From an uncultured Syntrophomonadaceae bacterium (GTDB taxonomy: Bacteria; Bacillota; Dethiobacteria; DTU022), in the NCBI GenBank assembly GCA_964485855.1, contig CAZAKI010000001.1, forward strand, positions 33,066 to 97,065: a DNA stretch of 64,000 nt, read 5' to 3'. Position numbers and translations under genes: made by a program. The notes beneath the pieces were generated by a model. The model worked only from the letters and a program-made list of their open reading frames with translations. It searched no databases and was not told the DNA's origin. Position 1 is the stretch's first letter, and each line of letters begins with the position of its first letter. Positions 29,170-56,653 of this stretch are shown here, one piece after another.

Positions 29170-29196
29170 TGATCTAATACCTCCTCTCCAGGTTCG

Positions 29197-29895: not shown

Positions 29896-29902
29896 AGCAG
29901 AC

Positions 29903-31249: not shown

Positions 31250-31299
31250 TATCCCTGCCTTTATTATTTGGTGACTGCTTTTTTAGAGATCAGGTGCGG

Positions 31300-31851
31300 T
31301 TAGCGCGCATATTTTTTAGCTCCATCAGCATACAGATCATTGCCGTAGGCATCGTTGATCACAGTGGCCGGAAAATCTTTCACCTCGAGTTTGCGAATCG
31401 CTTCCGGCCCCAATTCCGGATAGGCAACAACTTCGCTTTTGATTATTCGTTTCGAGAGTAATGCTCCCGCCCCTCCCACTGCAGCCAAATAGACGCCCTT
31501 ATATTTCTTTAGCGCTTCTTTGACCGCCTGATTTCTTAAACCCTTACCGATACAGGCTTTCATCCCTTTTTCGAGCATCATTGGAGTATAAGCGTCCATC
31601 CGACCGCTGGTTGTCGGTCCGGCTGAACCAATTGCCTGTCCAGGTTTGGCCGGAGCCGGTCCCACGTAATAAATAAACTGTCCCTTTAAATCGATCGGCA
31701 GATCCTCATTTTTTTCCATCAACTCAATTAGTTTTTTATGCGCTGCGTCACGTGCCGTATATATGATTCCACTAATTAATACATTGTCTCCCGCTTTAAG
31801 TGCAAGCACATCCGCATCGCTCAGTGGTGCAGAAATTTTTTTCGGTTCCAT
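31300..31851 (-). CDS. class I (Fe-S) fumarate hydratase / tartrate dehydratase beta subunit
   Basis: 183 aa. Matches the Fe-S hydro-lyase beta (FumB/TtdB type) family. Confidence 0.85.
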   Translation of the reverse strand: MEPKKISAPLSDADVLALKAGDNVLISGIIYTARDAAHKKLIELMEKNEDLPIDLKGQFIYYVGPAPAKPGQAIGSAGPTTSGRMDAYTPMMLEKGMKACIGKGLRNQAVKEALKKYKGVYLAAVGGAGALLSKRIIKSEVVAYPELGPEAIRKLEVKDFPATVINDAYGNDLYADGAKKYAR

Positions 31852-31881
31852 TGTGCTGTCCTCCTTCCTGCTTTGATCAAA

Positions 31882-32727
31882 TTATATTTCTCGTTCCAGG
31901 TGGCGGCAGGCATGGCAATTAATATTGACTGCCGCTGCCATGCTGGCGATATGTGAAGGAAATGTTTCAATATGAACGGCAAGAGCAAAAGTCCTACCAC
32001 CGAAACCCTGGGGACCTACGCCTAGATCATTGATCTTGCTCAGTATTTTCGCTTCAAGCTCCGCGAAAACCGGATCGCCATGCTTTGAACCTATTTGGCG
32101 GAAAAGGGCTTTTTTGGCCATCACCGCAACCTTGTCAAAAGTACCACCTATGCCGACACCAACAACTATCGGGGGACAAGGATTCGGTCCGGCAGCTTTA
32201 ACGTGATTGACAACAAAGTCAATTACTCCGGCTTCACCATCCGACGGTTTCAGCATTTTTACCGTGCTCATATTTTCACTGCCGCCGCCTTTTGGGGCAA
32301 AAGAGATCTTCACTTTATCACCGGGTACAAGATCCGTATAAATTACCGCCGGGGTATTATCTCCGGTGTTTTTCCTCTGGTAGAGAGGATCATCGACAAT
32401 TGATTTGCGTAGATATCCTTCTTCATATCCTTTGCGCACACCAGCATGAATCGCTTCCTCAAGCGTTCCTCCCGTCAGATGCACTTCCTGTCCCCACTCG
32501 ACAAAAAAAACAGCAAACCCCGTATCCTGGCAGATCGGAATTTGCTCATTTCTGGCAATCTCAACGTTTTCAATCAGCTGTTTTAAGACTTCCTTACCTG
32601 TTGGCGATTCTTCAGTATCCATTGACTTTTTTAAGGCAGAAAAGACGTCTTCGCCTAAGTAGATGTTTGCTTTCTGGCACATCTCGGCCACATGATCACT
32701 AATAACAGACGCGGCAAGCTCCCGCAA
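31882..32727 (-). CDS. class I (Fe-S) fumarate hydratase / tartrate dehydratase alpha subunit
   Basis: Fe-S hydro-lyase alpha with Cys ligands. The start is set at TTG 32727 (MRELAASV...), 8 nt after GGGAGG. The GTG at 32736 overlaps the Shine-Dalgarno. Confidence 0.85.
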   Translation of the reverse strand: MRELAASVISDHVAEMCQKANIYLGEDVFSALKKSMDTEESPTGKEVLKQLIENVEIARNEQIPICQDTGFAVFFVEWGQEVHLTGGTLEEAIHAGVRKGYEEGYLRKSIVDDPLYQRKNTGDNTPAVIYTDLVPGDKVKISFAPKGGGSENMSTVKMLKPSDGEAGVIDFVVNHVKAAGPNPCPPIVVGVGIGGTFDKVAVMAKKALFRQIGSKHGDPVFAELEAKILSKINDLGVGPQGFGGRTFALAVHIETFPSHIASMAAAVNINCHACRHLEREI

Positions 32728-32856
32728 ACCAGACACCTCCCATGAAATTTCTGCAGTTGTACATTTATATTTCTTTTTCGGCCTGCATGGGGAAATTCCT
32801 GCCGCTAATTATAAAATTTATTATAATTCTAAAATTTATCATGGAAGGCTTGCCGG

Positions 32857-33744
32857 CTATTTTGCTACTTTAGCCATTAACTTTTTGTAATCCCGATCAA
32901 CTTCTGCCTGCAAGTGTTCTAATTTAGCTTGATCCATGTTCTTAAAACGTTTTTGTCTCCCCAAATATTCACTGAGTGGAACGCTTTTAATGTCAGCCTG
33001 AACGGTCATCCTCCAGGTGGTGCCATTATCTACTTCAAAAAGAGGGAAGAAACCGGTTGTAACCGCTAGCCTTGATATTTCAACGGTTTCTGATGATTCA
33101 GTCCCCCAGCCAGGCGGGCAGGGCGATAATATATGAATAAAGCGAAAGCCCTTTATCGCTTTGGCTTTCTTCAGTTTTGCATCCAAATCTTCAGGATAAG
33201 CGATCGTTGCCGTTGCTATATACGGTACACTATGCGCCGCCATGATCTGCATGATGTCTTTCTTTTCTCCCTCTTTGAAGAGTGGATAGGGCGCGGTGTT
33301 TGTCCTCGCACCAAAAGGTGTCGCCGAACTTGTTTGCATACCTGTATTCATATAAGCTTCGTTATCATAACAGACAAAAATGAAGTCTTCGTTTCTCTGG
33401 GCTGCTCCAGACAAGGCTTGAAGGCCGATATCAAAAGTACCGCCATCTCCGGCCAGCACGACAACTGTAGTCTCATGGTAACCTTTTGCCTCCAAGCCCC
33501 TTTTAAGCCCGCTCCCTACAGAACCGGCGCTGGGAAACGGACAGTGTAGGACAGGGCATTTTAAGGCATTTAAAGGAGGCATCCCGGCAATAATACTCCA
33601 GCAGGATGCAGTTAGCGCAACAGCAATATTGGATCCAAGAGCCTTGGTTAGAAAACGGACGGCGAGCGCAGCACCGCAGCCCGGACAGGCATTATGCCCG
33701 GAATAAACCATTTCCTGTTGATGGACTAATGCTTCCGGTTTCAT
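32857..33744 (-). CDS. 2-oxoacid:ferredoxin oxidoreductase beta subunit (TPP-binding)
   Basis: 295 aa. N-terminal CPGCG and TPP motif GDGG...N (VVVLAGDGGTFDIG...YDNEAYMNTG). Confidence 0.85.
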   Translation of the reverse strand: MKPEALVHQQEMVYSGHNACPGCGAALAVRFLTKALGSNIAVALTASCWSIIAGMPPLNALKCPVLHCPFPSAGSVGSGLKRGLEAKGYHETTVVVLAGDGGTFDIGLQALSGAAQRNEDFIFVCYDNEAYMNTGMQTSSATPFGARTNTAPYPLFKEGEKKDIMQIMAAHSVPYIATATIAYPEDLDAKLKKAKAIKGFRFIHILSPCPPGWGTESSETVEISRLAVTTGFFPLFEVDNGTTWRMTVQADIKSVPLSEYLGRQKRFKNMDQAKLEHLQAEVDRDYKKLMAKVAK

Positions 33745-34889
33745 TTTAGATGATCACCCCAGACTTCAAGATACTGGTCATTTGTCTCTGCGTTGCCTGC
33801 ACTGAGCATGTTCAAAAGCATATCTCCGGTTAAATCGATGCCGCCGGCCAAGATCAGATCCCTGATTACAGGCTTTACCGGCAACTGGTAAAGAGCTTGA
33901 CAGAGTTCCTGGGCAAATACTCCGCCGCTCCCGATTGAATAGTTGCGATCAAGAACAATAATCTCTTCCAGCTCATAAGCTTTGACGATCGCACGCAGTC
34001 TTTCGGCGGGAAAAGGTCTGAACATCCGCAGCTTGATTAGCCCGATATTTTCCAGGTCTGGCAAAGACCACTTTACCGTTTCTGCTAATGCCCCAACCGC
34101 CATAATAGCTTTTCTGGCACCGGCAGGAATATATTCCTCCACATCTTGGTAACTACGGCCGAAAACTTTTTTAAACTGTTTATTGATCTCGGCAAAAACT
34201 TCCGGCGCAAGATGCATCGCATCGTCGCGATTTTTTACCAACTTATGGACTGTTTCACCGGTTGACAATCCGTGCAAATTTTCCGGATATCCCGGAACAA
34301 CCTGGGCTTTAAAATTTGGCGGTCCGATTAAACTTTGCACCAAAGATTTTTCTGCAATATCGACCACCTCATAGGTATGAGAAATATAGAATCCGTCAAA
34401 TACCACCATGCAGGGCAAAAGCAATTTTTCAGCCAGCGAAAATGCCTGTAAAACAGTATCAAAGACTTCCTGGGCATTGGCACAATAAATCTGAAGCCAT
34501 CCTGTGTCCCGCTGGCTGAGACTGTCGCCCTGATCCGGATCGAGACACCAGGGGGCACCGATAGCCCGGTTCACGTTAACCATAACGATTGGCAGTCTTG
34601 CTCCGCTGGACCAATGAATCATTTCATGCATGTAGGCCAGACCATGTGAAGCAGTAGCGGTAAAGACCCTGGCTCCAGAAGCTGACGCACCGGTACAAAA
34701 GGCAAGAGCTGAATATTCAGACTCAACACTGACAAATTCGCCTCCCAACTCTCCCCTGGCATCAAAATCAGCTAAAGTTTCAACAATTGCCGTTTGCGGT
34801 GTAATCGGATAAGCAGCGATCAGATCAACACCAACTCTTTGAACGGCTGTTGCGGCGGCCTGGCTGCCACTAATCATCTCAAAAGTCAT
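33741..34889 (-). CDS. 2-oxoacid:ferredoxin oxidoreductase alpha subunit
   Basis: 382 aa POR/KOR alpha-type protein. Its coding sequence overlaps the beta gene by 4 nt and the upstream gene by 11 nt. Confidence 0.85.
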   Translation of the reverse strand: MTFEMISGSQAAATAVQRVGVDLIAAYPITPQTAIVETLADFDARGELGGEFVSVESEYSALAFCTGASASGARVFTATASHGLAYMHEMIHWSSGARLPIVMVNVNRAIGAPWCLDPDQGDSLSQRDTGWLQIYCANAQEVFDTVLQAFSLAEKLLLPCMVVFDGFYISHTYEVVDIAEKSLVQSLIGPPNFKAQVVPGYPENLHGLSTGETVHKLVKNRDDAMHLAPEVFAEINKQFKKVFGRSYQDVEEYIPAGARKAIMAVGALAETVKWSLPDLENIGLIKLRMFRPFPAERLRAIVKAYELEEIIVLDRNYSIGSGGVFAQELCQALYQLPVKPVIRDLILAGGIDLTGDMLLNMLSAGNAETNDQYLEVWGDHLK

Positions 34890-36435
34890 TCGCCGGCTCC
34901 TCCTTCATTTCCAAAGCTCTGGCCGGGCATTCGTTGACGCAGATGCCACAGCCCTTGCAATAGTCCAGGTTAAACTCAAAACGACCGTTTGCTATGACAA
35001 CAGCTAAATCAGGACAGTATAGATAACAGATACCGCATGAATTACAGGTTCCGCAACCAAGGCAGCGTTCTGCTTCTGCCACCGGGTTGTCGTCCCGCTG
35101 TTTTAAATCAAGATTATTTCTTGCAGCCAGATTTAAATATTCAAAGGTAACTGGATCACCATAATTGGCCTGGAAACTCAAATCTTTTAATTTTTCATCA
35201 ACATTTTTAATCGCCTCCGCCGCACAGTGTCCAGCTTTAATTGCTTCTGCCACTGTTGCCGGGCCACTGACTAAATCTCCTCCGGCAAAAATATTTTGAC
35301 TACTATTGATAGTACCCAATCCTGCTAAATCAGGAACCTGGCCAAGAGCCATAATTACGGATTGACAATCTTTAATAAAACTTCTATCCCGATCGACAAA
35401 CAAACCTTGTTTTTCAGTCCGACAGTAATCAATCCTTACACCAATTATTCTTTCTTCGGTTTTAATAATCTCACGTGGTAAAGCATTAAAAATAAACTCT
35501 ACGCCTTCCTGCTCTGCCAGATCAATTTCATGTTGATCGGCTGGCATCTCAGGTCTGCTGCGCCTGTAGATTAAAACAACATGTTGCACTCCGGCAATGC
35601 GTAGTGCACTACGTGCACTGTCGATTGCTGCATTACCACCGCCAATGACAACAACTGTTTTGCCAACCTCTGGGATCCTACTTTGATTGTATTGGCAGAG
35701 AAAGTCAAGAGCATTATAAACATAGCGACTTTCCGCACCCGGAATATTGGATTTGCGTGCAAGCCAGGCTCCAGTAGCCAGAAAAACCTGTTCATGCTGT
35801 TTGTATAGATCATCGAGCTGAAAATCTTTGCCCAAGGCGCTATTGGTTTTAAAAATAATGCCTTCCGCTTTCAAGATGGCCAGCTCTTGTCTTAGAATAT
35901 CACGTGGTAACCTGTATTCCGGGATGCCAAGCGCAAGCATACCACCGATTACTGCTGATCTTTCGTAAATGGTAACCCCATAGCCGGCTGAGGAGAGATA
36001 ATAGGCACAGCTTAAACCAGCCGGGCCGGAGCCGACAATAGCGATCTCCTTCTTTACTTCTTTGTTTCTTTCTGGCGGCTGATAATGATCAAGTCTCCAC
36101 AAACCAATTGCCTTTTCCACTGCTCTGATATTAATTCCCTGATCCAACTGAGTCCTGTTACAGTTTTGCTCACAGGGGTTAAAACAAACATAACCGGTAA
36201 TTGCCGGGAAAGGATTATAGCGGCTCATAATCTCCCAGGCTTCTGCCCATTTTTTTTGTTTTACCGCTTCAAGCCAAGCCGGTATTTCACCGTCCAAAAG
36301 ACAGCCCTGGCGACATGGTGATAACCGATTCATTTTGAAGGGAGTTAAAAAACGCCACTCCCCGGTCTTGTTGACCGTGATAGCTTTAGATCCACCGGCA
36401 AACAATGTTGGTACCTGGCTAGCGATCAACTGCAA
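34879..36435 (-). CDS. fusion protein: a GltD-like NAD(P)H-dependent FAD/Fe-S oxidoreductase module joined to an OFOR delta-type 2x[4Fe-4S] ferredoxin domain
   Basis: N-terminal Cys-rich helical ferredoxin-like segment (CRQGC...CFNPCEQNC). Two dinucleotide folds (IAIVGSGPAGLSCAYYL and VVVIGGGNAAIDSARSA). C-terminal CxxCxxCxxxCP motifs (CKGCGICVNECP). TTG start with an AAGGAGG Shine-Dalgarno. It overlaps the gamma gene by 17 nt. Confidence 0.75.
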   Translation of the reverse strand: MQLIASQVPTLFAGGSKAITVNKTGEWRFLTPFKMNRLSPCRQGCLLDGEIPAWLEAVKQKKWAEAWEIMSRYNPFPAITGYVCFNPCEQNCNRTQLDQGINIRAVEKAIGLWRLDHYQPPERNKEVKKEIAIVGSGPAGLSCAYYLSSAGYGVTIYERSAVIGGMLALGIPEYRLPRDILRQELAILKAEGIIFKTNSALGKDFQLDDLYKQHEQVFLATGAWLARKSNIPGAESRYVYNALDFLCQYNQSRIPEVGKTVVVIGGGNAAIDSARSALRIAGVQHVVLIYRRSRPEMPADQHEIDLAEQEGVEFIFNALPREIIKTEERIIGVRIDYCRTEKQGLFVDRDRSFIKDCQSVIMALGQVPDLAGLGTINSSQNIFAGGDLVSGPATVAEAIKAGHCAAEAIKNVDEKLKDLSFQANYGDPVTFEYLNLAARNNLDLKQRDDNPVAEAERCLGCGTCNSCGICYLYCPDLAVVIANGRFEFNLDYCKGCGICVNECPARALEMKEEPANDF

Positions 36436-37015
36436 GGTACGCCACCTCCTTTACACTAGCAAATCCCTCGGTGGTCGCATTAATATTAGCATCAAGGCTT
36501 ACTGAAACTCTTTTCTTAATCGATGCCGTCAAATGTTCCAGGTTGACCAATCCACTTACTTTAGCCATAGCCCCAAGCATCACCGTATTAACCATTGGAA
36601 AACTACCGATGGCCAGATTATTTTTCAAGGCAATTTCTTTAGCCTCAATTTGAAATACTTTATACTGGCAGAGATTAGTCCTATTTTTTTCGAATAGTTT
36701 CCGCCAATCTTCCCCGGCATTAATAATCAGATTTCCTTCCTCCTGCAGGCCAGAAAAAAGAGTCTGTCTGCTAATTGTTGCATCAAACACTACCACATAA
36801 TCAGGATGATAAATTCTGCTACGGGGCATCAGCCGCTCCGGACTAATTCTAATGAAAGCAGTTACCGGCGCACCGCGACGCTCAGCGCCAAAAAGGGAAA
36901 AAGCCCGGGCATATTTACCGCTTAAAAATACAGCTTCGGCAAAAATCGATGCGGCTACAACAATCCCCTGCCCCCCCCTGCCGTGTAACCTAAATTCGGT
37001 TATTCCTCTGCGCAT
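36419..37015 (-). CDS. 2-oxoacid:ferredoxin oxidoreductase gamma subunit
   Basis: 198 aa POR/KOR/VOR gamma-type protein with a GGGAGG Shine-Dalgarno. It is the first gene of a gamma/delta/alpha/beta order. Confidence 0.85.
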   Translation of the reverse strand: MRRGITEFRLHGRGGQGIVVAASIFAEAVFLSGKYARAFSLFGAERRGAPVTAFIRISPERLMPRSRIYHPDYVVVFDATISRQTLFSGLQEEGNLIINAGEDWRKLFEKNRTNLCQYKVFQIEAKEIALKNNLAIGSFPMVNTVMLGAMAKVSGLVNLEHLTASIKKRVSVSLDANINATTEGFASVKEVAYLAVDR

Positions 37016-37242: not shown

Positions 37243-37259
37243 TTGCAATTTTCATGCCA
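37243..37259 (-). promoter_or_regulatory. sigma-54 (-24/-12) promoter, TGGCATGAAAATTGCAA, driving the oxidoreductase/TCA-branch operon
   Basis: On the minus strand, the GG and GC dinucleotides are spaced exactly as in the TGGCACG-N4-TTGCW consensus. The site lies 17 nt downstream of the stop of the adjacent sigma-54 activator gene, with a roughly 215-nt leader to the first structural gene. Confidence 0.55.
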
Positions 37260-37275: not shown

Positions 37276-38676
37276 TTAAATTAGGTTTTGTTGGTGAAGT
37301 TTGTTGTAAAGATTGCGGATTGAAATATCGAGGATACGTGCTGCTTCGGCCTTGTTGCCTTTGGCTTCCAGCAAGGCTTGACGCAAAATACCTTTTTCCC
37401 AGCTTTTATGCAGATCTTTTAAACTGCCTAGCGGTTTCTCACTTTCTCCTGTTTCAGTTTTTCCTGTGATCAGGTCGGGCATCATTAAGTGAGATTCAGT
37501 GATCATATTTTCTGTCCGATCTAAGTTAATCACCGCGCGAGCCATTACATTTTGTAACTCCCTGATGTTACCCGGCCAGTCATAGGCTTTCAGTCGTTTA
37601 AATACTGTAGGGGCAATTTCCACTGAATTTAGGCCGTATTCCAGGGCGCAGCGGGAGGCAAAATAATTAGCCAGTAGGGGGATATCACTGAGCATCTCTT
37701 TCAGTGAAGGTAAATAAATCGGAAATACATTGAGACGATAATAAAGATCCTGTCGAAAATAATTATTTTCGACCAGCTTTTCCAGATTGGCATTCGTCGC
37801 CGCTATAATTCGCACATCGATCTGCCGGCTACGTGACTCGCCTACCCTGATTATTTCACCCTCTTGAAGTGCCCTCAGTAATTTGGCTTGAGCTTCCGGA
37901 CCCATCGCACCGATTTCATCTAAAAACAAAGTACCATCAGTAGCCTCTTCAAAATATCCCTTACGCCCTCCTTTTTTAGCACCCGTAAAAGCCCCATCAC
38001 CGTAACCAAAAAGTTCGCTTTCCAGAAGAGTGTCAGTCAGTGATGCGCAGTTAACCCTGATAAACGGTTGATCAGCCCTTTCACTGTCATGATGAATGGC
38101 ATGAGCAAAAAGTTCTTTACCAGTACCACACTCACCTCGTAATAATATGGATACCGGGGTTGAGGCAGCCTGCCTTGCTCGCTCTATAGCTTTGCGCAGT
38201 GACATGCTGTCACCGATAATGTCTTTAAAAGTATAACGAGATTCCAATTTCCGGACCAGCCGGCGAGTGCGTTCCAACTCTTCCATCACCAGCCTCAACT
38301 CAGAAATATCGTGAATTACTCCGACACTACCCTTGATCTCTTTATTTAAGAATAAGGGGGCACAGCTTACGATTACTTCTCTGCGCAGTGGTCCTACTTT
38401 CATTCGAACTCCGGTAATCGCTTTTCCACTTTCCAGGACTTTTAAGTGGACACTTTCTCCTTCTGCAATATCAACAGTTGCCGGTTTATTTAACACTTGT
38501 TCTCTGGTCATTCCCGTAATTCTGGTGTAAGCGCTATTAATCATCATTCCGTTCCCTTTTTCATCAACTATAGAGACCGCATCGGACAGTGAATCAATAA
38601 TGGCCTGAAGAAGAACCATAGAGTCTTTTCCATCATTTAATAACCTAAATTGACCCTTAGAAAGATTACTGATCAT
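37276..38676 (-). CDS. sigma-54-dependent transcriptional activator (PAS sensor + AAA+ sigma-54 interaction domain + Fis-type HTH)
   Basis: 466 aa. GAFTGA-type motif (GDGAFTGA), Walker A GECGTGKE, and a C-terminal HTH ([18 protein letters not shown]). Confidence 0.9.
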
Positions 38677-40952: not shown

Positions 40953-41555
40953 ATGAATAATTTGGAACGTAAAATTCAAACTAAAACAAACATTGTGCAA
41001 TCCGCCACATCGTTATTTGCCCGCAATGGTTATGAAGCAACCAGCGTTGCCGAAATCTGTACACTTGCCGGGGTTAGTAAAGGAGCTTTTTATTACCATT
41101 TTGAAAGCAAGGAAGCCGTTTTGTTTAAATTGATTGATTCCTGGTTAAAAACCATCGAGGAAAACCTTTCCGAAATTACATTTAAAGCCAAAACTGTGCC
41201 TGACGGCTTGATCGAAATGGCCGGTATGATGCAGACTGTCTTCGATCATAATCGATTTTTTATGGGTTTATTTCTAGAATTATGGACCAACGCGCATCGT
41301 AATGAAAAAATCCGCCAGGCAACCCTGGCTCCCTACGAACGGTTCAAAAATCTTTTTTCCGAACTGATAAACCGTGGTAGTGAAGAGAAATCTTTAAAAA
41401 CGGTCGATCCCGAAACGGCAGGCCAGCTCTTGCTGTCGCTCTCCAGTGGTTTCTTTTTACAGGCTGCTCTTGAACCAGATCGCCGTGATTGGGGCAGTAA
41501 GCTGCAGAAGAGTATTGAAATGTTATTAGATGGTTTAAAACGGGGGAATAGTTAG
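40953..41555 (+). CDS. TetR/AcrR family transcriptional regulator
   Basis: 200 aa with an N-terminal HTH (ATSVAEICTLAGVSKGAFYYHF). Confidence 0.85.
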   Translation: MNNLERKIQTKTNIVQSATSLFARNGYEATSVAEICTLAGVSKGAFYYHFESKEAVLFKLIDSWLKTIEENLSEITFKAKTVPDGLIEMAGMMQTVFDHNRFFMGLFLELWTNAHRNEKIRQATLAPYERFKNLFSELINRGSEEKSLKTVDPETAGQLLLSLSSGFFLQAALEPDRRDWGSKLQKSIEMLLDGLKRGNS

Positions 41556-42602
41556 ATGATATTGGTAACCGGCGCAGCAGGACATCTGGGTAACGTTCTG
41601 GTTCGAGAGCTCTTAGCAGCAGATGAAAAAGTTCGAGCCCTTGTTCACCCGGGCGAACCTCTTCATTCTTTACAGGGAATGCTGATTGAGGTTATTGTCG
41701 GCGACATCCTTGATCGTGATTTATTAAATCGGGCCATGTGGGGTATTGATACAGTTTTTCATTTAGCGGGGATCATTGCCATCAGACCCGGGATGGAAGA
41801 TCTGATGACCAAGGTTAATGTTGAAGGTGCCCGAAACGTGGCCGAAGCTGCTTTAAACAACCATGTTCGTCGCCTGGTTCATGTCAGCTCGGTTCATGCC
41901 TTTCGACGTGAACCGCTGGGTACTGTAATTGATGAACAGACACCCCTTGCTCTTGATAGCCCGATGGGTACCTATGATCGAACAAAAGCGGAAGGCACCA
42001 AAACAATCCTTGATTTTATCGCTAAAGGTCTTGATGCGGTTATTGTCTGTCCCAGCGGGATCATCGGTCTTCACGATTATCGGGGATCGGAAATTGGCAA
42101 AGCCCTGCTTTCTTTTGCCACCACTCGTCCTACCCTTCTGGTTGATGGTGCATACGATTTTGTTGATGTCCGTGATGTTGCCCGCGGTTTAATCCAAGCA
42201 AAAGATAAGGGTAAAAAGGGTGAAATCTATATATTGTCAGGCTCACAGGCATCGGTTGAAAACCTGTGCCAGATGGCCCAGCAGGCCAGCGGCACTAAAA
42301 GTGTGATGTATAAAATACCGATTCACTTTGCCATTCTAGTGCTCGGTTTATTGCAGGGACTGATTAGTTGGTTAAAAATTAAATCCAGATATACAGTTTA
42401 TTCCCTGCAAACCCTGCTTGGTAATTCTGTTTTTAGTTCACTCAAGGCCAAAAACGAGCTGGGGTACCAGGCAAGGCCGTTAAGCGAAGCAATTGCCGAT
42501 TATATCAATTGGAGCTACCAAAGATTTAAACTTGCAAGAACTAATACTAAGACAGTAAACAAATGCGTACCGTCCAAGAAAAATCCACCTTCGGTTGCTT
42601 AA
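41556..42602 (+). CDS. NAD(P)-dependent epimerase/dehydratase-family (extended SDR) oxidoreductase
   Basis: 348 aa with GAAGHLG Rossmann motif and YxxxK. Its ATG overlaps the tetR stop, so the two are likely co-transcribed. Confidence 0.75.
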
Positions 42603-42988
42603 AACCGACTGATTATATAACTGCAAATTTTTTCCAGTGAGTCCCCGGGTGTAAATATCTGGTCGGCGAAACCACCGGCAATCAATGCTTGCGAATCTTC
42701 TTCGGGAATAATCCCACCCACAACCAATGGGATCTCTTTCATCCCCATCTGCCCCAGAAGTTGCTTAATTTTAGGCACCAGGGTCATGTGGGCACCGGAT
42801 AAAATGCTTAAGCCAACAAGATCAACATCTTCCTGCATTGCTGCTTCTGCTACCTGTTCGGGTGTTTGGTGTAATCCGGTATAAATAACTTCCATTCCGG
42901 CGTCACGTAAGGCCCTTGCAACCACTCTCGCCCCACGATCGTGACCGTCAAGCCCAGGTTTTGCCAGTAAGACTCTTATTTTCTTCAT
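42599..42988 (-). CDS. icmB: B12-binding small subunit of a split adenosylcobalamin-dependent acyl-CoA mutase (IcmB-like)
   Basis: DxHxxG cobalamin-binding motif ([12 protein letters not shown]). About 129 aa if the start is ATG 42988 after GGAGG. Confidence 0.8.
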
Positions 42989-43109
42989 GACCAACCTCCG
43001 GGATATCATCCAACTAGTTAGACCGATTCAGCAAAAATGCCCCGGGTAGATCTCAAGTAAAGTAAGATTATTGAGATCAGCAACGCGGTTCCCAGTAAAT
43101 AATATAAAA

Positions 43110-44774
43110 TTAAAATAGCGGCTTTTCTTTATACTCGCCAAAAACCGCTTTCAACGCTTCTACTATTTCTCCTTCCGTGGCGTAACACTTCACCGCGTCG
43201 AGAATCTTAGGCATTAAATTATCGCTTCCGGCTGCTGATTGCTTTAAGTTTAAAAGGCTTTTTTTCACTGCATCTTGATCCCTTAGTACTTTCAGCTTTT
43301 CTAGTCTCTCAACTTGCTTCCTTTCGACTGTTGGATCAATTTTCAGCAATTCAATCTGCTGTTTTTCAGCATGACTGTAACAATTCACCCCAACTACGAT
43401 CCGCTTACCGCTGTCTACCGCCTGTTGATAGTCATAGGCTGCATCTGCTATTTCCTGTTGGAAGAATCCGCAATCAATTGCCTTTAAAACCCCACCCAGT
43501 TTCTCGATTCTTTCAAAATAGCTCTCCGCCTCTTTTTCCATTTGGTTAGTTAAAGCCTCGACGTAATACGAACCGGCTAAAGGGTCGATCGAGTTAACCA
43601 CTCCGCTCTCGTGGGCGATAACCTGCTGCGTCCGGAGGGCAATTTTCACTGCGTTTTCCGTTGGCAGCGCAAGAACTTCATCCATTGAATTTGTATGCAG
43701 TGACTGGGTTCCCCCCAATACAGCAGCTAATGCTTCCAACGCGGTACGGATAATATTATTTTCAGGCTCCTGTGCGGTCAGGCTGCAACCGGCAGTTTGG
43801 GTATGAAACCTCATCTTCAAAGACCGGGGATCATTGGCTCCATAATGTTCTTTCATCCGGCGAGCCCAAATTCTTCTGGCAGCCCTGTACTTGCAGATCT
43901 CTTCAAAAAAATCAAGATGGGCATTAAAAAAGAAAGAGAGACGCGGTGCAAAACTATCCACATTTAAGCCCGCTGCGATCCCCGCTTCGACGTAAGCAAA
44001 GCCATCCGCCAGGGTAAAAGCCAGTTCCTGGACCGCGGTTGAGCCCGCTTCCCTGATGTGATAACCGCTAATGCTAATTGTATTCCACCGTGGAACATGA
44101 TCGGAAGCAAAGGCAAATATATCGGTAATCAGGCGCAATGAAGGTCCGGGCGGGAAAATCCATGATTTTTGAGCGATATACTCTTTTAAAATATCGTTTT
44201 GAATCGTCCCTCCCACCCGATCTAAATTAATGCCTTTTTTCTCTGCGTTTGCCAAATACATACACCATAATATTGCGGCTGGACCATTGATGGTCATTGA
44301 AGTGGTAACCTGATCGAGCGGAATTTGATCAAAAAGAATTTCCATGTCGGCCAGTGAATCAATGGCAACACCACAACGGCCGACTTCGCCGGCGGATCTT
44401 TCGTGATTAGAATCATAGCCCATAATAGTCGGCAGATCAAAAGCGACTGAAAGACCGGTTTGACCCTGCTCCAAAAGATAGCGATAGCGACGGTTTGAAT
44501 CGTAGGCATCACCAAAACCGGAAAATTGCCTCATCGTCCAGAAACGACCCCGGTACATCGTATCCTGTACCCCACGCGTGTAAGGGTAATCACCGGGAAA
44601 TCCAAGTTCGTTGCTATAATCAAACTCACCAAGATCAAGAGGTGTATAAAGAGGCTTGACTTGTATGCCGGAAATAGTTTGAAAAATATTTTCTGCCTCT
44701 TCCTGTTTTGCAACTTTTTCCTTCCATCGCTTCATCTCTTGATGCAATTTTTGATTAACCCGATCTCTGCTCAA
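43110..44774 (-). CDS. icmA: large (substrate-binding TIM-barrel) subunit of an adenosylcobalamin-dependent acyl-CoA mutase with the isobutyryl-CoA mutase signature (IcmA-like)
   Basis: 554 aa. It aligns with the methylmalonyl-CoA mutase (MCM) catalytic domain. The two substrate-carboxylate residues of MCM are replaced: Tyr89 in TIRQYAG becomes Phe (TMRQFSG), and Arg207 in KEFMVRNTYIYPP becomes Gln ([13 protein letters not shown]). The Phe/Gln pair is characteristic of isobutyryl-CoA mutase. Confidence 0.7.
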
Positions 44775-44789
44775 ATGATCACCCGCTTT

Positions 44790-45734
44790 TTAACGATAAA
44801 AATTAATGTTTTCCAGTAGCTCGCAGGCTGAACTGTAGGGATCTTTTTTCCGTCCGGCAATTTCTTCAACCAGCTTGTCATAATCAATAGTTTCTTTGAT
44901 CTGCTCCCAAACCTTCTGTTTAACAAGATACTCAACCTGTTCAGTCAGTTCGCGGCGGATCCGCAACCGGCGGACACGGTCTAACTCCCCACTGGTCTCA
45001 AGGTACTGACGGTGTTTTTTAAGTGCTTCCCACAGCTCCGCTGCTCCTTCACCCCTGATTGATACAGCGGGTATTACCGGTGGTCTCCATGACTTATCTC
45101 CCTGCATATCAAGCATCATGTTGACCTCGGTAACTGTTCTTTCCATGCCAGGTAAATCGGCCTTATTAATCACAAAGACATCAGCTATTTCCATTATTCC
45201 CGCTTTAAGCGTTTGGACTGTGTCACCACCGGCCGGAGTAAGAACTACTACGGTCGTATCGGCTGTTTTTACGATATCCACCTCTGACTGTCCAACCCCG
45301 ACCGTTTCGATCAATACCAGATCTTTCCCAAACGCATCCAATACCTGAATTGCTTCCCTTGTTGATCTTGACAATCCGCCTAAACTACCTCTGGTGCCCA
45401 TACTGCGAATAAATATTTCCTGATCGAGGGCATGATCCTGCATCCTAATGCGATCGCCGAGAATCGCCCCTCCGCTAAATGGGCTGGTCGGATCCACTGC
45501 GATTACTCCCACGCTCAGCTTCTCGAACCTGATCTGCTGCAGTAATTGGTCGACCAGCGAGCTTTTTCCCGCTCCCGGAGCTCCGGTTATACCGATTACA
45601 TAGCTTCGCCCCGTGTGCGGAAACAGCTCTTTTAGCAGGTCATTTTTCTGTTTGTCATTATTTTCCACTAGGGTTATTAACCGTGCCGCGGCCCGCCTGT
45701 TTCCTGTTAATAGTTCCTCGACCAACTGCTGCAT
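44790..45734 (-). CDS. meaB: MeaB/ArgK-type G-protein chaperone of B12 mutases
   Basis: 314 aa. P-loop GITGAPGAGKSS, and it is adjacent to the mutase large subunit. Confidence 0.85.
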   Translation of the reverse strand: MQQLVEELLTGNRRAAARLITLVENNDKQKNDLLKELFPHTGRSYVIGITGAPGAGKSSLVDQLLQQIRFEKLSVGVIAVDPTSPFSGGAILGDRIRMQDHALDQEIFIRSMGTRGSLGGLSRSTREAIQVLDAFGKDLVLIETVGVGQSEVDIVKTADTTVVVLTPAGGDTVQTLKAGIMEIADVFVINKADLPGMERTVTEVNMMLDMQGDKSWRPPVIPAVSIRGEGAAELWEALKKHRQYLETSGELDRVRRLRIRRELTEQVEYLVKQKVWEQIKETIDYDKLVEEIAGRKKDPYSSACELLENINFYR

Positions 45735-45768
45735 TTTTTCACCCCATAGTTAAAAATAATCGTCGCTT

Positions 45769-46296
45769 TTAGTATTCGATTCCAGGACAGCAGCCGGCTC
45801 CCTGTTCGTAATGATGTTTGATTGCCAACACTTCGCTGACCAGATCAGCCCTTTTTACCAGTTCCGCAGAAGCATTACGTCCTGTGAGGACAACGGTAAC
45901 CCCATCGGGCTTTTCTTCGAGCAACTGCAGTAAATCATTTTCGCTAATCAGCTTATAATCAACAGCAACATTGATCTCATCCAGCACCACCAGGTCATAT
46001 TCACCGCTTAAAATTGCCTTCCGGGCTTTTGCAAATCCTGCCTGAGCCAGTTCAATATCAACCGGATCAGGATTATCACGATTAACAAAGTCATCGCGCC
46101 CGGCACGCACCAAGGTCAAATTGGGAAGCTGAGCTGTAGCTAAAAATTCTCCATAATCTCGACCTTTCATAAAGTGAATCATGTAAACCCTAAAACCGTG
46201 CCCTAAAGCCCTGATCGCCTGTCCAACAGCAGCCGTTGTTTTCCCTTTTCCGTCTCCGGTAAATACCATGATCAGGCCAGGCTTAGCATTATCCAT
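45769..46296 (-). CDS. cobO: ATP:cob(I)alamin adenosyltransferase (CobO/BtuR/CobA type)
   Basis: 175 aa with the P-loop-like TGDGKGKTTAA. Confidence 0.85.
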   Translation of the reverse strand: MDNAKPGLIMVFTGDGKGKTTAAVGQAIRALGHGFRVYMIHFMKGRDYGEFLATAQLPNLTLVRAGRDDFVNRDNPDPVDIELAQAGFAKARKAILSGEYDLVVLDEINVAVDYKLISENDLLQLLEEKPDGVTVVLTGRNASAELVKRADLVSEVLAIKHHYEQGAGCCPGIEY

Positions 46297-46392
46297 CAGT
46301 TATAAACACCTCTTTTGCCGATCTGAAGTAATCTACACCAGTAGCAAATAACTTGCCTCTTCTCTAGTTTATCCGTACAGCAATCGCGGGTT

Positions 46393-47532
46393 CTAGGCAA
46401 GAAGGTAGCGTGAAATTACCAGGCGTTGTACTTCACTTGTCCCTTCGTAAATTTGCGTAATTTTGGCATCCCGCATGTACCTCTCCACCGGGTAATCTTT
46501 AGTATAACCATAACCACCAAAAATCTGGACCGCATTGGTGGTTACCTCCATTGCCATTTCAGCGGCAAAAAGTTTAGCCATCGCCGATGCTTTTCCATAT
46601 GGCAGTCCTGCGCTTTCCAGGTAAGCGGCCTGATAGGTAAGCAGGCGAGCCGCTTCAATTTTGGTTCCCATGTCAGCCAGCATGAAAGATATTGCCTGAA
46701 AATTGGCGATCGGTTGCCCAAATTGTTCCCTGCTCTTAGCATAGTTAACCGCTTCCTCCATTGCGCCCTGGGCAATACCGACTGCCTGGGCTGCTATTCC
46801 GTTCCGGCCACCATCTAAAGTACTCATGGCAATCTTAAAACCTTCCCCTTCAGCGCCAAGCAGGTTTTCCTTGGGTACCCGGCAGTTTTCGAAGATTAGT
46901 TCCAGGGTGGGAGATGATCTTAAGCCCATTTTTCTCTCTTTTTTGCCAAAGGAAAACCCTTCCATGCCCTGCTCAACGATAAAGGCGCTGATCCCTTTAG
47001 CTTTTTTCGTTTTATCAGTAACTGCAAAGACAATATAGATTTCTGCATCGCCACCATTGGTAATAAATATTTTATTACCGTTCAACACATAGCTATCTTC
47101 TTCAAGTCTGGCCGTCGTACTTTGATTGGCGGCATCGGTTCCGGCCGCGGCTTCGGTTAAAGCATAAGCGCCAAGTTTTTCCCCTAAAGCCATCGGCTCT
47201 AAATATTTTTTCTTTTGCTCTTCGCTGCCATATTTATACAGCGGCCAACCGGCCAGAGAGGTGTGAGCCGATAGCGTGGTGCCAGTTGAGGCATCTACTC
47301 TTGAAAGTTCTTCCACCGCTATCACGTAGCTGATAAAGTCACAACCGGCTCCTCCATATTCTTCCGGCCAGGGTATTCCGGTCAGCCCTAGCTTGCCCAT
47401 CTGATCAAAAATAGCCCTTGAGAACTTTTCCTGGTCATCCCTTTCTTCCGCTCCTGGTTTTAGTTCTTTCTCAGCAAAATCACGCACCATTTTTTTGGTC
47501 ATTTCCTGTTCTTCGGTCAGCACAAAATTCAT
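46393..47532 (-). CDS. acyl-CoA dehydrogenase (short/branched-chain type)
   Basis: 379 aa ACAD fold with the C-terminal catalytic Glu region ([12 protein letters not shown]). Confidence 0.85.
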
Positions 47533-47570
47533 CGGCTATTCCTCCCACTTTAGTTATTGTCTTCAAGCCT

Positions 47571-48692
47571 CTAGCTCAATCTTTTTAGGAGCTCCCTGGC
47601 GATTACAATTCGTTGGATCTGGTTTGTTCCTTCGTAAATCTGTGTCGCCTTGGCATCACAGAAATAGCGGTTCAGCGGATTGTTCCCACCTTTTGAGGCC
47701 GGATAGAAAAGATCTAAACAGCGAGTTGCTGTTTCCATTGCCAGGTCCGTAGCAAAGAGTTTTGCCATCGATGCTTCCCGGGTGCAACGTTTGCCGCTTT
47801 CCTTGGCAAGTGCCGCCCTGTAAACCAGCAACCTGGCAGCTTCAATTTTTGCTGCCAGTTCGGCAATAATCAAAACAGACGAATGATTGGTTTGATTTGT
47901 AGTCCCTTTAACCTGTTGCAGATAGTTTAAAGTAAAATCTAGTGACGCCTGGGCCAGACCCAGTCCCTGTGCGGCAATCCCAATTCTTCCTCCATCCAGT
48001 AGGGACATGGCAATCTGGAAACCTTCCTTTTCAGCTCCTAACCTGTTCGACGTCGGAACAAAGAGATCCTCCAGCTGTAGTGCGGTCGTTTTTGAACGGG
48101 ATAAGCCCATTTTCTTTTCCGGCAAGCCTGCAACCAAGCCCGGCTGGTTTTTCTCAACCAGGAAAGCAGTAATCCCCCGGTGACCAAGCGATCGATCAAG
48201 AGTAGCAAAAACTGTAATCAGATCCGCTTCACCTCCCGCGGTGATAAAAAGCTTGCTCCCGTTCAGCCGGTATCCTCCTTCAACCACAACAGCTGAAGAA
48301 ATAAGCGCAGCTGCATCCGAACCCGCTCCCGCTTCTGTCAGCGCAAAGGCACCAAGCAGATCTCCACCGGCAAGTTTACCAAGATATTGTTTCTTTTGAT
48401 CAACTGTTCCGTAATAGAGCAAAGGAAAAGTCCCGACAGAGGTGTGAACTGAGAGGATCACTCCGGTTGAAGCACAAACTCTAGATACTTCCTCGATCAT
48501 TAAAATATAGGTCAGAAAATCTTCTCCCTGGCCATTCCAGCAACTGGGAATGGGCAATCCCATATAACCGCGCTGCCCGGCTTTAGCTAAATTCTCGCGG
48601 GGGAAATGATCCCCCGTATCCAATTCATGTTCGGCAAAATAACGGAATTCTTCGCGGCGATTTAAGTGGTGTTTGTTGAGGAGTAATTCCAA
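47571..48692 (-). CDS. acyl-CoA dehydrogenase, second paralog
   Basis: 373 aa ACAD fold (YEGTNQIQRIVI). Confidence 0.85.
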   Translation of the reverse strand: MELLLNKHHLNRREEFRYFAEHELDTGDHFPRENLAKAGQRGYMGLPIPSCWNGQGEDFLTYILMIEEVSRVCASTGVILSVHTSVGTFPLLYYGTVDQKKQYLGKLAGGDLLGAFALTEAGAGSDAAALISSAVVVEGGYRLNGSKLFITAGGEADLITVFATLDRSLGHRGITAFLVEKNQPGLVAGLPEKKMGLSRSKTTALQLEDLFVPTSNRLGAEKEGFQIAMSLLDGGRIGIAAQGLGLAQASLDFTLNYLQQVKGTTNQTNHSSVLIIAELAAKIEAARLLVYRAALAKESGKRCTREASMAKLFATDLAMETATRCLDLFYPASKGGNNPLNRYFCDAKATQIYEGTNQIQRIVIARELLKRLS

Positions 48693-48713
48693 AGATGCCA
48701 GCTCCTTCTTCCT

Positions 48714-49895
48714 CTAAACCTTTACAACAACAGCTTCACCCTGAGCAGCACCACTGCAGATCGTGGCCAGACCGTACCCCCCACCCCTTCTGCGCAACTC
48801 GGCAATCAAAGTAATCAGGATTCTGGCTCCACTGGCACCGATCGGATGGCCCAGGGCCACGGCTCCACCATTAACATTAACAATACTTTCATCCCATCTG
48901 CCAAGCTTGATGCAGGTTAGTGCTACCGCGGCAAACGCTTCATTTACTTCGATTAACTTCAGTTCTTTGCTCTTTAGACCGGCCTTACGAATGGCTTTTT
49001 CAGCAGCTGCAAATGGTACGGTAGCAATGTAACGTGGATCAAGTGATACCGCTGCCTGGGCTACCACTGTCGCTAAAGGCTTCAGGCTTAATTCAGCTGC
49101 CTTTTCACTTGAGGCCAGGATCAGGGCGGCTGCTCCATCACTAATTGCCGGGGCATTGCCAGCAGTGATTAAGCCTTCTGCTTCAAATGCCGGCGGCAGT
49201 TTAGCGAGCGATTCTAAACTGGTATCCGGGCGGGGTAACTCGTCCTTTTCAACGAGCAGACTAGCCCCTTTTCGCTGCGGAACCAGGACTGAAGCCAGCT
49301 CTTGATCAAATAATCCCAACTGCTGGGCCTTGACTGCTTTCTGATGACTATGCAGCGCAAAACGGTCCATCTGATCGCGAGTGATACCCTCTTCCGCCGG
49401 AACGGAACCACCGTGAACTCCCATATGAACATCGTAAAAAGGGCACCACAGTCCATCTTTGATCAGGCCGTCGATTAAACTGTTATCACCCATACGCAAA
49501 CCCGAACGCATCTGGTATAAAAAGTAAGGAACGGCGCTCATGTTTTCCATTCCTCCCGCGACGATTAAATCAGCTTCACCGGCGCGGATCAGGGCATCCC
49601 CGAGATTAACCGCCCTTAAACCCGATGCACAGACCTTGTTAATCGTTTCAGAAGGAACCTCGGGAGGCAACCCAGCTTTAATCGAAGCCTGTCGCGAAGG
49701 AATTTGACCGGCTCCTGCCTGGACTACCATCCCCAATAAAACATTATCGATTAACGCCCCTGAAAGACCTGAACGCCGTAGAGCTTGCTTCACAGCAATT
49801 GCGCCCAGTTCAACTGCGGGAATGGCACTTAAGGAACCCATAAATTTGCCGAAGGGAGTTCTTGCATAGCCGACGATTAGTGTTTCACGCCTCAA
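48714..49895 (-). CDS. acetyl-CoA C-acetyltransferase (thiolase II)
   Basis: 393 aa. Active-site Cys (NKVCASGL) and C-terminal GGGxG/Cys-His motifs. Confidence 0.9.
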   Translation of the reverse strand: MRRETLIVGYARTPFGKFMGSLSAIPAVELGAIAVKQALRRSGLSGALIDNVLLGMVVQAGAGQIPSRQASIKAGLPPEVPSETINKVCASGLRAVNLGDALIRAGEADLIVAGGMENMSAVPYFLYQMRSGLRMGDNSLIDGLIKDGLWCPFYDVHMGVHGGSVPAEEGITRDQMDRFALHSHQKAVKAQQLGLFDQELASVLVPQRKGASLLVEKDELPRPDTSLESLAKLPPAFEAEGLITAGNAPAISDGAAALILASSEKAAELSLKPLATVVAQAAVSLDPRYIATVPFAAAEKAIRKAGLKSKELKLIEVNEAFAAVALTCIKLGRWDESIVNVNGGAVALGHPIGASGARILITLIAELRRRGGGYGLATICSGAAQGEAVVVKV

Positions 49896-54616: not shown

Positions 54617-56596
54617 TTAGAAAAAGAGTGGAGCAAATACCAGGGCAACGATGCTCATCAGTTTGATTAAGATATTCAAGGAAGGTCCTGCCGTATCTTT
54701 AAAAGGATCACCAACCGTATCACCAACTACGGCTGCTTTATGCGGATCGCTTCCCTTACCCCCCAAATTACCGGCCTCGATAAACTTTTTGGCATTATCC
54801 CAAGCTCCACCGGCATTGGCCATATTGATAGCCTGGAGCACACCGGTCACTAAGGCACCCGCTAACAATCCACCGAGAGCTTCCCGACCAAGAAAAGGAA
54901 TCAGGCCGACTGCCAAAGGAACTATCACCGCCATCAGACCAGGGACGACCATCTCTTTTAAAGCCGCCCTGGTACTGATATCAACACATTTGGCATATTC
55001 CGGACGGGCCTTACCTTCCATCAGTCCGGCAATTTCCTTGAACTGGCGGCGGATCTCCTCGATTAATGAATAGGCAGCATTACCAACTGCTTCCATGGTT
55101 CTGGAGGTGAAGAAGTAGGTCAGCATTCCACCAATTAACAGACCGGAAATAACCCGAGCGCTGGTAATATCAATGACACTAAGCTCAGCCACCTGGGCGT
55201 ATGCCGTGAACAGAGCCAGTGCGGTTAGCGCCGCCGAACCAATAGCAAAACCTTTACCGATAGCAGCGGTGGTATTACCTAATGAATCAAGTTGGTCGGT
55301 AATTTTGCGCACTTCCGGTTCAAGTTCGGCCATTTCGGCAATTCCACCGGCATTATCGGCTACCGGCCCATAAGCATCAACCGCTACGGTCATGCCAACC
55401 GTTGCCAGCATGCCAACCGCTGAGATGGCGATACCATAAATTCCGGCAAAGTAATAAGAAATCAGGATGGCAGCCACAATGGTCAGTGTCGGATATACGG
55501 TGCTTTTCATCCCGACAGCAAGGCCGCTGATGATATTGGTAGCCGGACCGGTTTGCGATGCCCTGGCTATATCCTGTACGGGCTTAAAATGATCGGAAGT
55601 ATAATATTCGGTAACCCTGCCGATGATTACTCCGGCTAAAAGACCGGCAACAACAGCATAAAAAGGTCCGAGATTCGGAAAAACACCCTGCGCTACAAAA
55701 GAGCGGACTACGAAAAAAGAAACTACCAGGACCACCAGGGCGCTGATCCAGATTCCTCTTTCCAGCACTGCGCCAAGCCTGACCCCTTCTTTCGCCCGAA
55801 CAAAGAAAAAAGCAAAAATGGAGGCCAGGATCCCGATTGAAGCTACGATTAGGGGCAGCAGGGTGCCACCCAGGCCGTACAAGACAACTCCCAGCGTCAT
55901 GGTAGCAATCATCGATCCAACATATGATTCAAAAAGGTCGGCACCCATGCCGGCAACATCACCGACATTGTCGCCAACGTTATCGGCTATGACCCCGGCA
56001 TTACGCGGATCATCTTCGGGGATACCCGCCTCAATCTTACCAACCAGATCGGCGCCAACATCGGCAGCCTTAGTATAAATACCGCCCCCGACCCGGGCAA
56101 AAAGAGCTATAGAGCTGGCTCCCAGCGCATAACCATTAATTACAGCCGGATCACGAATAATTAAATATAAGACCCCAAGACCAAGCAGACCGAGACCGGC
56201 AACCATCATACCCATAATTGTGCCACTGGAAAAAGCCACTCCAAGCGCCTCGTTTATTCCGGAACGGGCGGCATGTGCAGTTCGCACATTGGCGCTTGTC
56301 GCTACGGTCATCCCAATATAACCGGCGGTGGCGGAAAGAACTGCTCCGATGACAAAACTGATTGCGGTTAGTATATTGATCGCAACGGCAAGGACAACCG
56401 TCAATACAACAACAAAGATTGCCAGGTACATATATTCACGTTTCATGAAAGCCATGGCCCCCTCATGAATCGCAGCGGCAATTTCTTGCATCTTTTCGTT
56501 TCCGGCATCGGCTTTTACCATTTTAACCCAGAGAATTAAGGCAAAAATCAGCGCAATGACCGCACAAATTGGTGCAAGATAGAGCAAAACATTCAT
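54617..56596 (-). CDS. hppA: membrane-integral, K+-dependent-type ion-pumping pyrophosphatase (H+ or Na+ translocating)
   Basis: About 659 aa with roughly 16 transmembrane helices and the GDNVGD motifs. GNTTAA (Ala rather than Lys) indicates the K+-dependent class. Starts by tandem TTG/ATG at 56599/56596 after GGAGG. Confidence 0.9.
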
Positions 56597-56653
56597 CAAT
56601 CATCATCCTCCATCTGTGTGAGATTCTGATCATAATTTATCTAAAACTCCGGA

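Follow-up and report, generated by a model that had tools for sequence, protein, structure and literature searches.

The DNA considered here is a 64,000-nucleotide window from an uncultured Syntrophomonadaceae bacterium (GCA_964485855.1, contig CAZAKI010000001.1, positions 33,066 to 97,065). On its minus strand, at 42599–49895, it carries a cluster of seven genes built around an adenosylcobalamin (AdoCbl)-dependent acyl-CoA mutase that is probably an isobutyryl-CoA mutase (ICM, EC 5.4.99.13). Open reading frames (ORFs) were assigned by Pfam and NCBIfam profile scores, and all seven genes that a preliminary description had grouped as a B12-mutase operon were found exactly where it had placed them, with spacers of 15–121 nt. 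In the direction of transcription, the cluster begins with a thiolase (acetyl-CoA C-acetyltransferase, acetoacetyl-CoA thiolase; 393 aa, 48714–49895), which shows Thiolase_N and Thiolase_C domains and scores 550.9 bits against NF006086, above the cutoff of 526. It is followed by two acyl-CoA dehydrogenases (ACADs), both with the Pfam ACAD N, M and C domains: the divergent, short-chain-type ACAD-B (373 aa, 47571–48692) and the butyryl-CoA dehydrogenase (Bcd)-type ACAD-A (379 aa, 46393–47532), which holds all the canonical motifs. Next are a CobA/CobO/BtuR-type ATP:corrinoid adenosyltransferase (175 aa, 45769–46296; 200 bits against PF02572, with the NCBIfam cobA models slightly below their cutoffs) and a MeaB-type G-protein chaperone with the P-loop GAPGAGKSS (314 aa, 44790–45734; 365 bits against TIGR00750, above the cutoff of 240.75, and 318 bits against PF03308). 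The last two genes encode the mutase itself, as a large substrate-binding subunit with a TTG start (554 aa, 43110–44774; PF01642, 759 bits; TIGR00641, 789) and a small B12-binding subunit (129–136 aa, 42599–43009; PF02310, 96.5 bits; TIGR00640, 162 bits). The DxHxxG (His-on) motif of the small subunit reads DGHDRG, and the JGI gene calls begin this subunit at the second ATG, giving 129 aa and 42599–42988.

The window is ordinary chromosome, in which infB, nusA, rpsB, tsf, dnaE, pyk and pur genes are also present. The pur operon ends with purD, and the thiolase gene begins 35 nt beyond it; downstream of the cluster lie a convergent gene for a short-chain dehydrogenase/reductase (SDR)/epimerase, a gene for a TetR protein, and then ligA. 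The SDR/epimerase gene (41556–42602) and the TetR gene (40953–41555) were weighed as possible components of the system and set aside: among the three relatives with ~78–80% identity (L085–L087), the former is missing from two and the latter from all three. Four JGI metagenome contigs carry an identical mutase, and the near relatives are labelled as Bacillota or Dethiobacteria metagenome-assembled genomes (MAGs).

The large subunit holds the motifs TMRQFSG and KEYIAQKS, in which the preliminary description had seen two residues of methylmalonyl-CoA mutase (MCM) replaced, Tyr by Phe and Arg by Gln. The phmmer alignments to the MCMs of P. shermanii, human and M. tuberculosis, and to HcmA of 2-hydroxyisobutyryl-CoA mutase (HCM), are gapless across both sites, and the alignment to the P. 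shermanii enzyme has high posterior probability through both. Phe84 of the query falls on the column of MCM Tyr89; this column is fixed by two entries, the wild-type 1REQ and the Y89F mutant 5REQ, whose difference lies at precisely the position aligned to Phe84. Gln202 corresponds to Arg207, counted along 1REQ (chain index 206, with an offset of +1). Both substitutions therefore stand, and the misalignment that had been named as a possible source of error was not found against the solved structures. At the same two positions, HcmA (4R3U) has Ile and Gln, and the HCM Asp within GISTDFD aligns to Ala111 within GLSVAFD of the query. The 4R3U chain carries an 11-residue tag, so that its indices 101 and 128 for this Ile and Asp correspond to residues 90 and 117, in agreement with Ile90 and Asp117, which we take to be the HCM-defining residues; in the query both are missing, with Phe84 and Ala111 in their place. 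The SGYH motif, presumably equivalent to MCM Tyr243/His244, is conserved. We take Phe/Gln (F/Q) to be the signature of ICM, Tyr/Arg (Y/R) that of MCM and Ile/Asp (I/D) that of HCM; the protein carries the ICM pair, without the MCM pair and without the HCM pair.

The best solved-structure match of the large subunit is HcmA 4R3U, at 575.7 bits, with human MCM at 516 bits. Against the MCM equivalog NF006944 it reaches 680, short of the cutoff at 876, and against the fused-ICM model NF045497 it reaches 372, far short of the cutoff at 1500; here three separate genes are present. A tblastn search against plasmids returned ScpA-type MCMs for the most part, with no ICM among the annotations.

The F/Q pair is a stable property of a whole group of mutases. 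It is found in all 120 of the nearest homologues, at 77–100% identity. A scan of genome contigs, using a pattern conserved in all mutases, yielded, among the matches listed, 80 loci at 57–69% identity from many bacterial and archaeal phyla (Syntrophothermus lipocalidus is not one of them), of which 50 are of the F/Q type and 30 of the Y/R type. An alignment of 108 sequences was then considered, made up of 20 close homologues and 83 proteins from the 80 loci besides the query and four PDB sequences. In 107 of them Phe always occurs with Gln and Tyr always with Arg, HcmA being the sole Ile/Gln case; this perfect covariation indicates that F/Q is not a chance substitution. The 71 F/Q and 36 Y/R sequences are otherwise ~60% identical, and only query columns 84, 202 and 203 fully discriminate between them: F/Q is invariant within the 71, and column 203, next to the Gln, is Lys in the F/Q type and Gly in the Y/R type. 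In a neighbour-joining tree, the phylogenetic check that had been proposed at the outset, all F/Q sequences, the query included, form one monophyletic clade (bootstrap 77/100). Its sister group is the split Y/R mutases, with the fused MCMs as outgroup and HcmA on a separate long branch; F/Q sequences and HcmA group together in only 8/100 bootstraps. The Bacillota lineage that contains the query has a bootstrap of 100. The F/Q pair, the missing HCM residues and the position of the clade beside the split Y/R MCMs point to an ICM-type rather than an MCM-type enzyme, as the preliminary description had suggested.

Two further observations concern the distribution of the F/Q mutases. In three Chloroflexota/Anaerolineae MAGs (L028, L057 and L066), F/Q and Y/R large-subunit genes share a strand and are no more than ~4 kb apart, so that both specificities are apparently maintained side by side. 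Split F/Q mutases also occur in archaeal/Asgard MAGs, namely L021 (Aenigmatarchaeota), L034, L047, L048 and L052, which suggests either transfer of the module between domains or mis-binning of some contigs.

The gene neighbourhoods also differ between the two types and favour an uncharged C4 substrate. The 80 listed loci were searched by tblastn with the proteins of the window, and a neighbour was counted when it lay within 10 kb of the mutase. Among these listed matches, an ACAD was found near the mutase at 12 of 50 F/Q loci and at none of 30 Y/R loci (Fisher p = 0.0027); for the thiolase the counts were 9 of 50 and 1 of 30, a difference that is not significant (p = 0.08). When the gaps of four distant F/Q loci were scanned with Pfam, fuller gene sets emerged. 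L036 reads thiolase-Hbd-crotonase-ACAD-ACAD-CobO-large-small, followed by ACAD-MeaB; L034 holds an ACAD, CobO-large-small-MeaB, crotonase, Hbd and thiolase; L021 holds thiolase, EtfA, EtfB, ACAD and CobO-large, followed by MeaB and the small subunit; and L018 reads thiolase-ACAD-ACAD-Hbd, followed by MeaB-large-small. Split F/Q mutases are thus repeatedly tied to enzymes that connect butyryl-CoA, acetoacetyl-CoA and acetyl-CoA. The link to β-oxidation-like steps that the preliminary description had proposed is strengthened by this comparative context, in which ACADs recur at F/Q loci of other phyla and thiolase, Hbd, crotonase and EtfAB appear at single loci.

Within the lineage, the arrangement is highly conserved. 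The order purM-purN-purH-purD/thiolase/ACAD-B/ACAD-A/CobO/MeaB/large/small/ligA recurs in every relative examined save one (L090), down to 54% identity of ACAD-B, and the position of the thiolase is unchanged throughout L081–L090. In one relative, genes for an AtoDA-type CoA-transferase precede the thiolase. The exception, L090 (GCA_002049705.1, MTKW01000147.1, 6789–13164), keeps thiolase-ACAD-B-ACAD-A-CobO and has lost MeaB and both mutase genes, with ligA directly after cobO. As a separate observation, a membrane H+-pyrophosphatase gene (54617–56599, minus strand) lies within the pur operon of the window, between purF and purM, and is equally placed in L081, L083, L088 and L090.

What is observed at this locus is its gene content, the signature residues, the position in the tree and the conservation of synteny; for the substrate, the role in the pathway and the direction of flux we infer the following. 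The cluster probably encodes a split AdoCbl-dependent ICM, with an IcmA-like large and an IcmB-like small subunit, whose most likely reaction is to turn isobutyryl-CoA and n-butyryl-CoA into each other, and this assignment is well supported by inference from sequence. The adenosyltransferase would make AdoCbl, and the MeaB GTPase would load it, gate its entry into the small subunit and guard it. In the large subunit, Phe84 and Gln202 would replace the carboxylate clamp; with the MCM Tyr and Arg exchanged for Phe and Gln, the pocket would suit an uncharged C4 acyl group. Judging from the family, homolysis of the Co–C bond would then lead to a 5'-deoxyadenosyl-radical 1,2-shift between isobutyryl-CoA and n-butyryl-CoA. 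Judging from the genomic context, the Bcd-type ACAD, possibly with its degenerate paralogue, would oxidise butyryl-CoA to crotonyl-CoA, and the thiolase would interconvert acetoacetyl-CoA and two acetyl-CoA at the end of the straight-chain side. The most likely role of the system in this anaerobic member of the Bacillota is to channel isobutyryl-CoA derived from valine or isobutyrate into C4 β-oxidation. The catabolic direction, from valine or isobutyrate to acetyl-CoA, is favoured by analogy with S. lipocalidus.

Several points weigh against the assignment as an ICM of this pathway. The key that equates each residue pair with a specificity is one that we presume from general knowledge of the family. 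IcmF, the sole characterised ICM in the comparison, is a distant match at 318 bits, and the tree left out both Streptomyces cinnamonensis IcmA, from a characterised split ICM, and Slip_0758 of S. lipocalidus. No gene for an electron transfer flavoprotein (ETF), an enoyl-CoA hydratase (crotonase) or a 3-hydroxyacyl-CoA dehydrogenase (Hbd) was found among 52 of the 54 ORFs of at least 140 aa in the 64-kb window, the two others lying at the far end of the pur operon; the preliminary description had noted this gap for the operon, and crotonase, Hbd and Etf would have to be encoded elsewhere in the genome. The gene loss in L090 implies that the dehydrogenase/thiolase part is separable from the mutase and can function without it. 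Finally, there is no recognisable promoter specific to the cluster, 35 nt behind purD. A scan for promoters and terminators gave sites no more frequent than expected by chance, with none between purD and the thiolase gene, and an Rfam search of the window gave no hit to a riboswitch or to any other RNA.

One candidate regulatory site within the cluster was rejected. The sigma-54-like sequence AGGCAAGTTATTTGCT (46343–46358, minus strand, with two mismatches), in the ACAD-A/cobO spacer upstream of cobO, is probably a chance match: at the same stringency 32 matches were found against 33.5 expected from shuffled sequence, and the site is missing from the relatives.

The alternative that survives best keeps the enzyme and reverses its use. 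Since the mutase reaction is reversible, the opposite direction is possible, and the pathway could run anabolically, with thiolase and Bcd in reverse, from acetyl-CoA through butyryl-CoA to isobutyryl-CoA, which would prime iso-branched fatty acids or, after reductive carboxylation to 2-oxoisovalerate, serve for valine. This is a possibility of the lesser kind, although it has several features of the locus on its side: the cluster stands among housekeeping genes, from the pur operon to ligA, neither a promoter nor a regulator specific to it was detected, and a POR/VOR-type oxidoreductase is encoded nearby. The reaction has been described as reversible (PMC10832561), and isobutyrate-producing clostridia have been proposed to run the mutase in this way (PMC7764203). 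Against it, the module is catabolic in the sole cultured organism that has both the module and a known phenotype (PMC5017805), and the AtoDA-type CoA-transferase before the thiolase in one relative suits activation of an acid. The catabolic reading is kept as the favoured one.

It is rather unlikely that an ICM-like enzyme acts here mainly on another uncharged acyl-CoA, interconverting isovaleryl-CoA and pivalyl-CoA, in the manner of a pivalyl-CoA mutase (PCM), or valeryl-CoA and 2-methylbutyryl-CoA. The pocket residues match those of canonical ICM as we presume them, ACAD-A is nearest to butyryl-CoA dehydrogenases, and the related F/Q loci carry Hbd, crotonase and an acetoacetyl-CoA-type thiolase, which together make up a C4 pathway. 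Such a substrate would fit the two ACAD paralogues, which could mean more than one acyl substrate, and the presence in relatives of a Leu/Val/Phe-type amino-acid dehydrogenase gene and a POR/VOR-type 2-oxoacid oxidoreductase operon nearby; moreover, IcmF, with the same F/Q pair, has been reported to convert isovaleryl-CoA and pivalyl-CoA as well (PMC10481361).

An HCM/RCM-type mutase, interconverting 2-hydroxyisobutyryl-CoA and 3-hydroxybutyryl-CoA and joined to the thiolase via acetoacetyl-CoA, is very improbable. HcmA is the best solved structure, the Gln at the Arg207 position is common to both proteins and the thiolase is adjacent; however, Ile90 and Asp117 are Phe and Ala in the query, HcmA stands outside the F/Q clade on its long branch with the weak joint grouping given above, the cluster has no gene for Hbd or a 2-hydroxyisobutyric acid (2-HIBA)-CoA ligase, and two ACADs would be unnecessary. 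Least credible of all is an ordinary MCM interconverting succinyl-CoA and methylmalonyl-CoA, as automated annotation has it: the homologues are named 'methylmalonyl-CoA mutase family protein' in their source records, the query is ~60–62% identical to the split Y/R mutases and reaches 516 bits with human MCM, and a fumarase/TfrA-like fumarate reductase/family III CoA-transferase cluster lies ~11–16 kb away, but Tyr89 and Arg207 are both replaced, invariantly across the clade, the NF006944 score of 680 remains under its cutoff, the cluster has no epimerase or carboxyltransferase gene, and ACADs adjoin F/Q and not Y/R mutases.

The two dehydrogenases of the putative ICM cluster differ markedly from one another. 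ACAD-A has its nearest matches among the clostridial Bcds, with 519.6 bits against C. difficile Bcd of the Bcd-EtfAB complex (5ol2_C) and 518 bits against A. fermentans Bcd (4l1f), and the best PDB matches of ACAD-B, 5lnx and 5ol2_C, reach ~325 bits. In relatives whose mutase is 78–80% identical, ACAD-A is 86–89% identical, as against 64–67% for ACAD-B. ACAD-B retains the flavin-ring motifs TEAGAGSDA and FITAGG and the catalytic Glu motif QIYEGT, and has lost the RxQFG...Q and Q-I-x-GGxG[YF] motifs, both of which are invariant in ACAD-A and in all 13 other aligned ACADs, the second ACADs of distant F/Q loci among them. From structures of medium-chain acyl-CoA dehydrogenase (MCAD), we take RxQFG...Q and GGxG[YF] to be contacts to the ADP part of the partner subunit's FAD. 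Among ACAD-B homologues with 54–100% identity, GGxG is missing from 120 of 120 and RxQFG from 113 of 120, and YEG is kept in all; in the relatives examined, ACAD-B always adjoins an intact ACAD-A.

This loss of motifs hints at a heteromeric short-chain acyl-CoA dehydrogenase, and it would be plausible for A and B to assemble into a heteromer with just a part of its FAD sites complete. A bolder version, in which the mutase feeds an obligate heteromer of ACAD-A and ACAD-B whose subunits outnumber its FAD sites and ACAD-B is active only when paired with ACAD-A, is offered tentatively, as a proposal with the odds somewhat against it. If true, it would be the first α/β-type ACAD outside steroid catabolism, and would tie an ACAD heteromer to the anaerobic route from valine or isobutyrate through butyryl-CoA to acetyl-CoA. 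ACAD-B has lost exactly the motifs that we presume to contact the partner, and in the steroid enzymes one subunit supplies the ADP-ribose contacts. In those α2β2 ACADs, the flavin ring and the ADP-ribose of FAD are bound by different subunits, and the pairs ChsE4-ChsE5 and ChsE1-ChsE2 resemble ACAD-A/ACAD-B in being encoded by two adjacent ACAD genes (PMC11153573). The steroid β subunit, however, has neither the catalytic Glu nor the flavin-ring site, whereas ACAD-B keeps both, and the pairing proposed here is read from sequence only.

Beyond the mutase cluster, other genes of the window may concern 2-oxoacid and C4-dicarboxylate metabolism. A gene for a sigma-54/PAS activator (37276–38676) is closest to PrdR, with a score below the cutoff of that model. 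Just downstream of it, between this gene and the one at 36419–37015, lies a sigma-54 promoter-like site, TGGCATGAAAATTGCA (37244–37259, minus strand), which is conserved in L085, L086 and L087 and stands ahead of a 2-oxoacid oxidoreductase operon. This operon (32857–37015, minus strand) encodes γ, α and β subunits of a POR/VOR-type 2-oxoacid:ferredoxin oxidoreductase, together with a 518-aa GltD-like NAD(P)-binding/ferredoxin subunit that replaces a simple δ subunit; all its NCBIfam scores are below cutoff. In relatives, a gene for a 345–354-aa Leu/Val/Phe/Trp-type amino-acid dehydrogenase lies between the promoter and the oxidoreductase, and the window has no such gene. That the operon supplies branched acyl-CoA from amino acids is speculation. 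Downstream of it, at 26369–32736 (minus strand), are genes for a two-subunit fumarase, a malic enzyme, an Fe-S protein, a TfrA-like soluble fumarate reductase flavoprotein and a family III CoA-transferase, which may form a C4-dicarboxylate branch.

The significance of these results lies mainly in the correction of annotation. Automated pipelines call this protein and hundreds of its relatives methylmalonyl-CoA mutase, and the evidence gathered here indicates that all of these belong to the ICM type. For many uncultured anaerobes, metabolic reconstructions would accordingly shift, with valine and isobutyrate carbon entering straight-chain C4 metabolism and not the propionate/succinate pathway. 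The two pocket residues and their one neighbour offer a rule usable for re-annotating split mutases that are ~60% identical, and the degenerate ACAD-B is a small lead on heteromeric short-chain acyl-CoA dehydrogenases. Current understanding is not overturned; the value of the work rests on the corrected annotation and on this lead.

Among known systems, that of S. lipocalidus is the closest in composition. This organism isomerises isobutyrate to butyrate before β-oxidation, and homologous clusters occur in other anaerobes (Narihiro et al. 2016, PMC5017805); in strain TGB-C1, Slip_0757–0760 are annotated as a predicted ICM cluster (PMC5017805). Compared by gene families, both clusters combine an adenosyltransferase (Slip_0757), the large and small mutase subunits and a MeaB-like GTPase in an anaerobic member of the Bacillota, and the proposed role, conversion of isobutyryl-CoA to butyryl-CoA before β-oxidation, is the same. 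The gene order differs, being adenosyltransferase-large-small-MeaB in S. lipocalidus and adenosyltransferase-MeaB-large-small in the window. Mutase-dependent isomerisation of butyrate and isobutyrate has also been discussed for isobutyrate-forming clostridia (PMC7764203, PMC10832561). The module of the window is a further case of a gene module already described in anaerobes and in this sense fairly ordinary. The preliminary description had held that few characterised examples exist outside actinomycetes and a handful of anaerobes; this rarity stands for characterised enzymes and fails for genomes, given the 50 F/Q loci among the 80 listed and the prior annotation in S. lipocalidus (PMC5017805).

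The characterised split ICM of S. cinnamonensis, IcmA/IcmB, set beside the window by description only, likewise consists of a large and a small subunit of similar sizes, unlike it in belonging to an aerobic actinomycete and a polyketide-precursor context. We take IcmA/IcmB to carry the Phe/Gln pair at the positions of MCM Tyr89 and Arg207. IcmF of Cupriavidus metallidurans (PDB 4XC6) unites the same B12, MeaB-like G-protein and substrate functions, and presumably shares the F/Q chemistry; its G domain matches the MeaB protein of the window with ~150 bits. It is, however, one polypeptide of 1,113 residues (construct length) against three proteins here, and its substrate domain matches far less well (318 bits) than HcmA or MCM. 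HcmA/HcmB of Aquincola tertiaricarbonis (4R3U), the top-scoring solved relative, is split and has Gln at the Arg207 position, and departs from the window enzyme in Ile90 for Phe and Asp117 for Ala and in its place outside the F/Q clade. The split Y/R MCMs of anaerobes and archaea are ~59–64% identical to the window enzyme, equally split and often adjacent to MeaB; they differ in having Tyr for Phe, Arg for Gln and Gly for Lys at the next residue, and their neighbourhoods are without ACADs.

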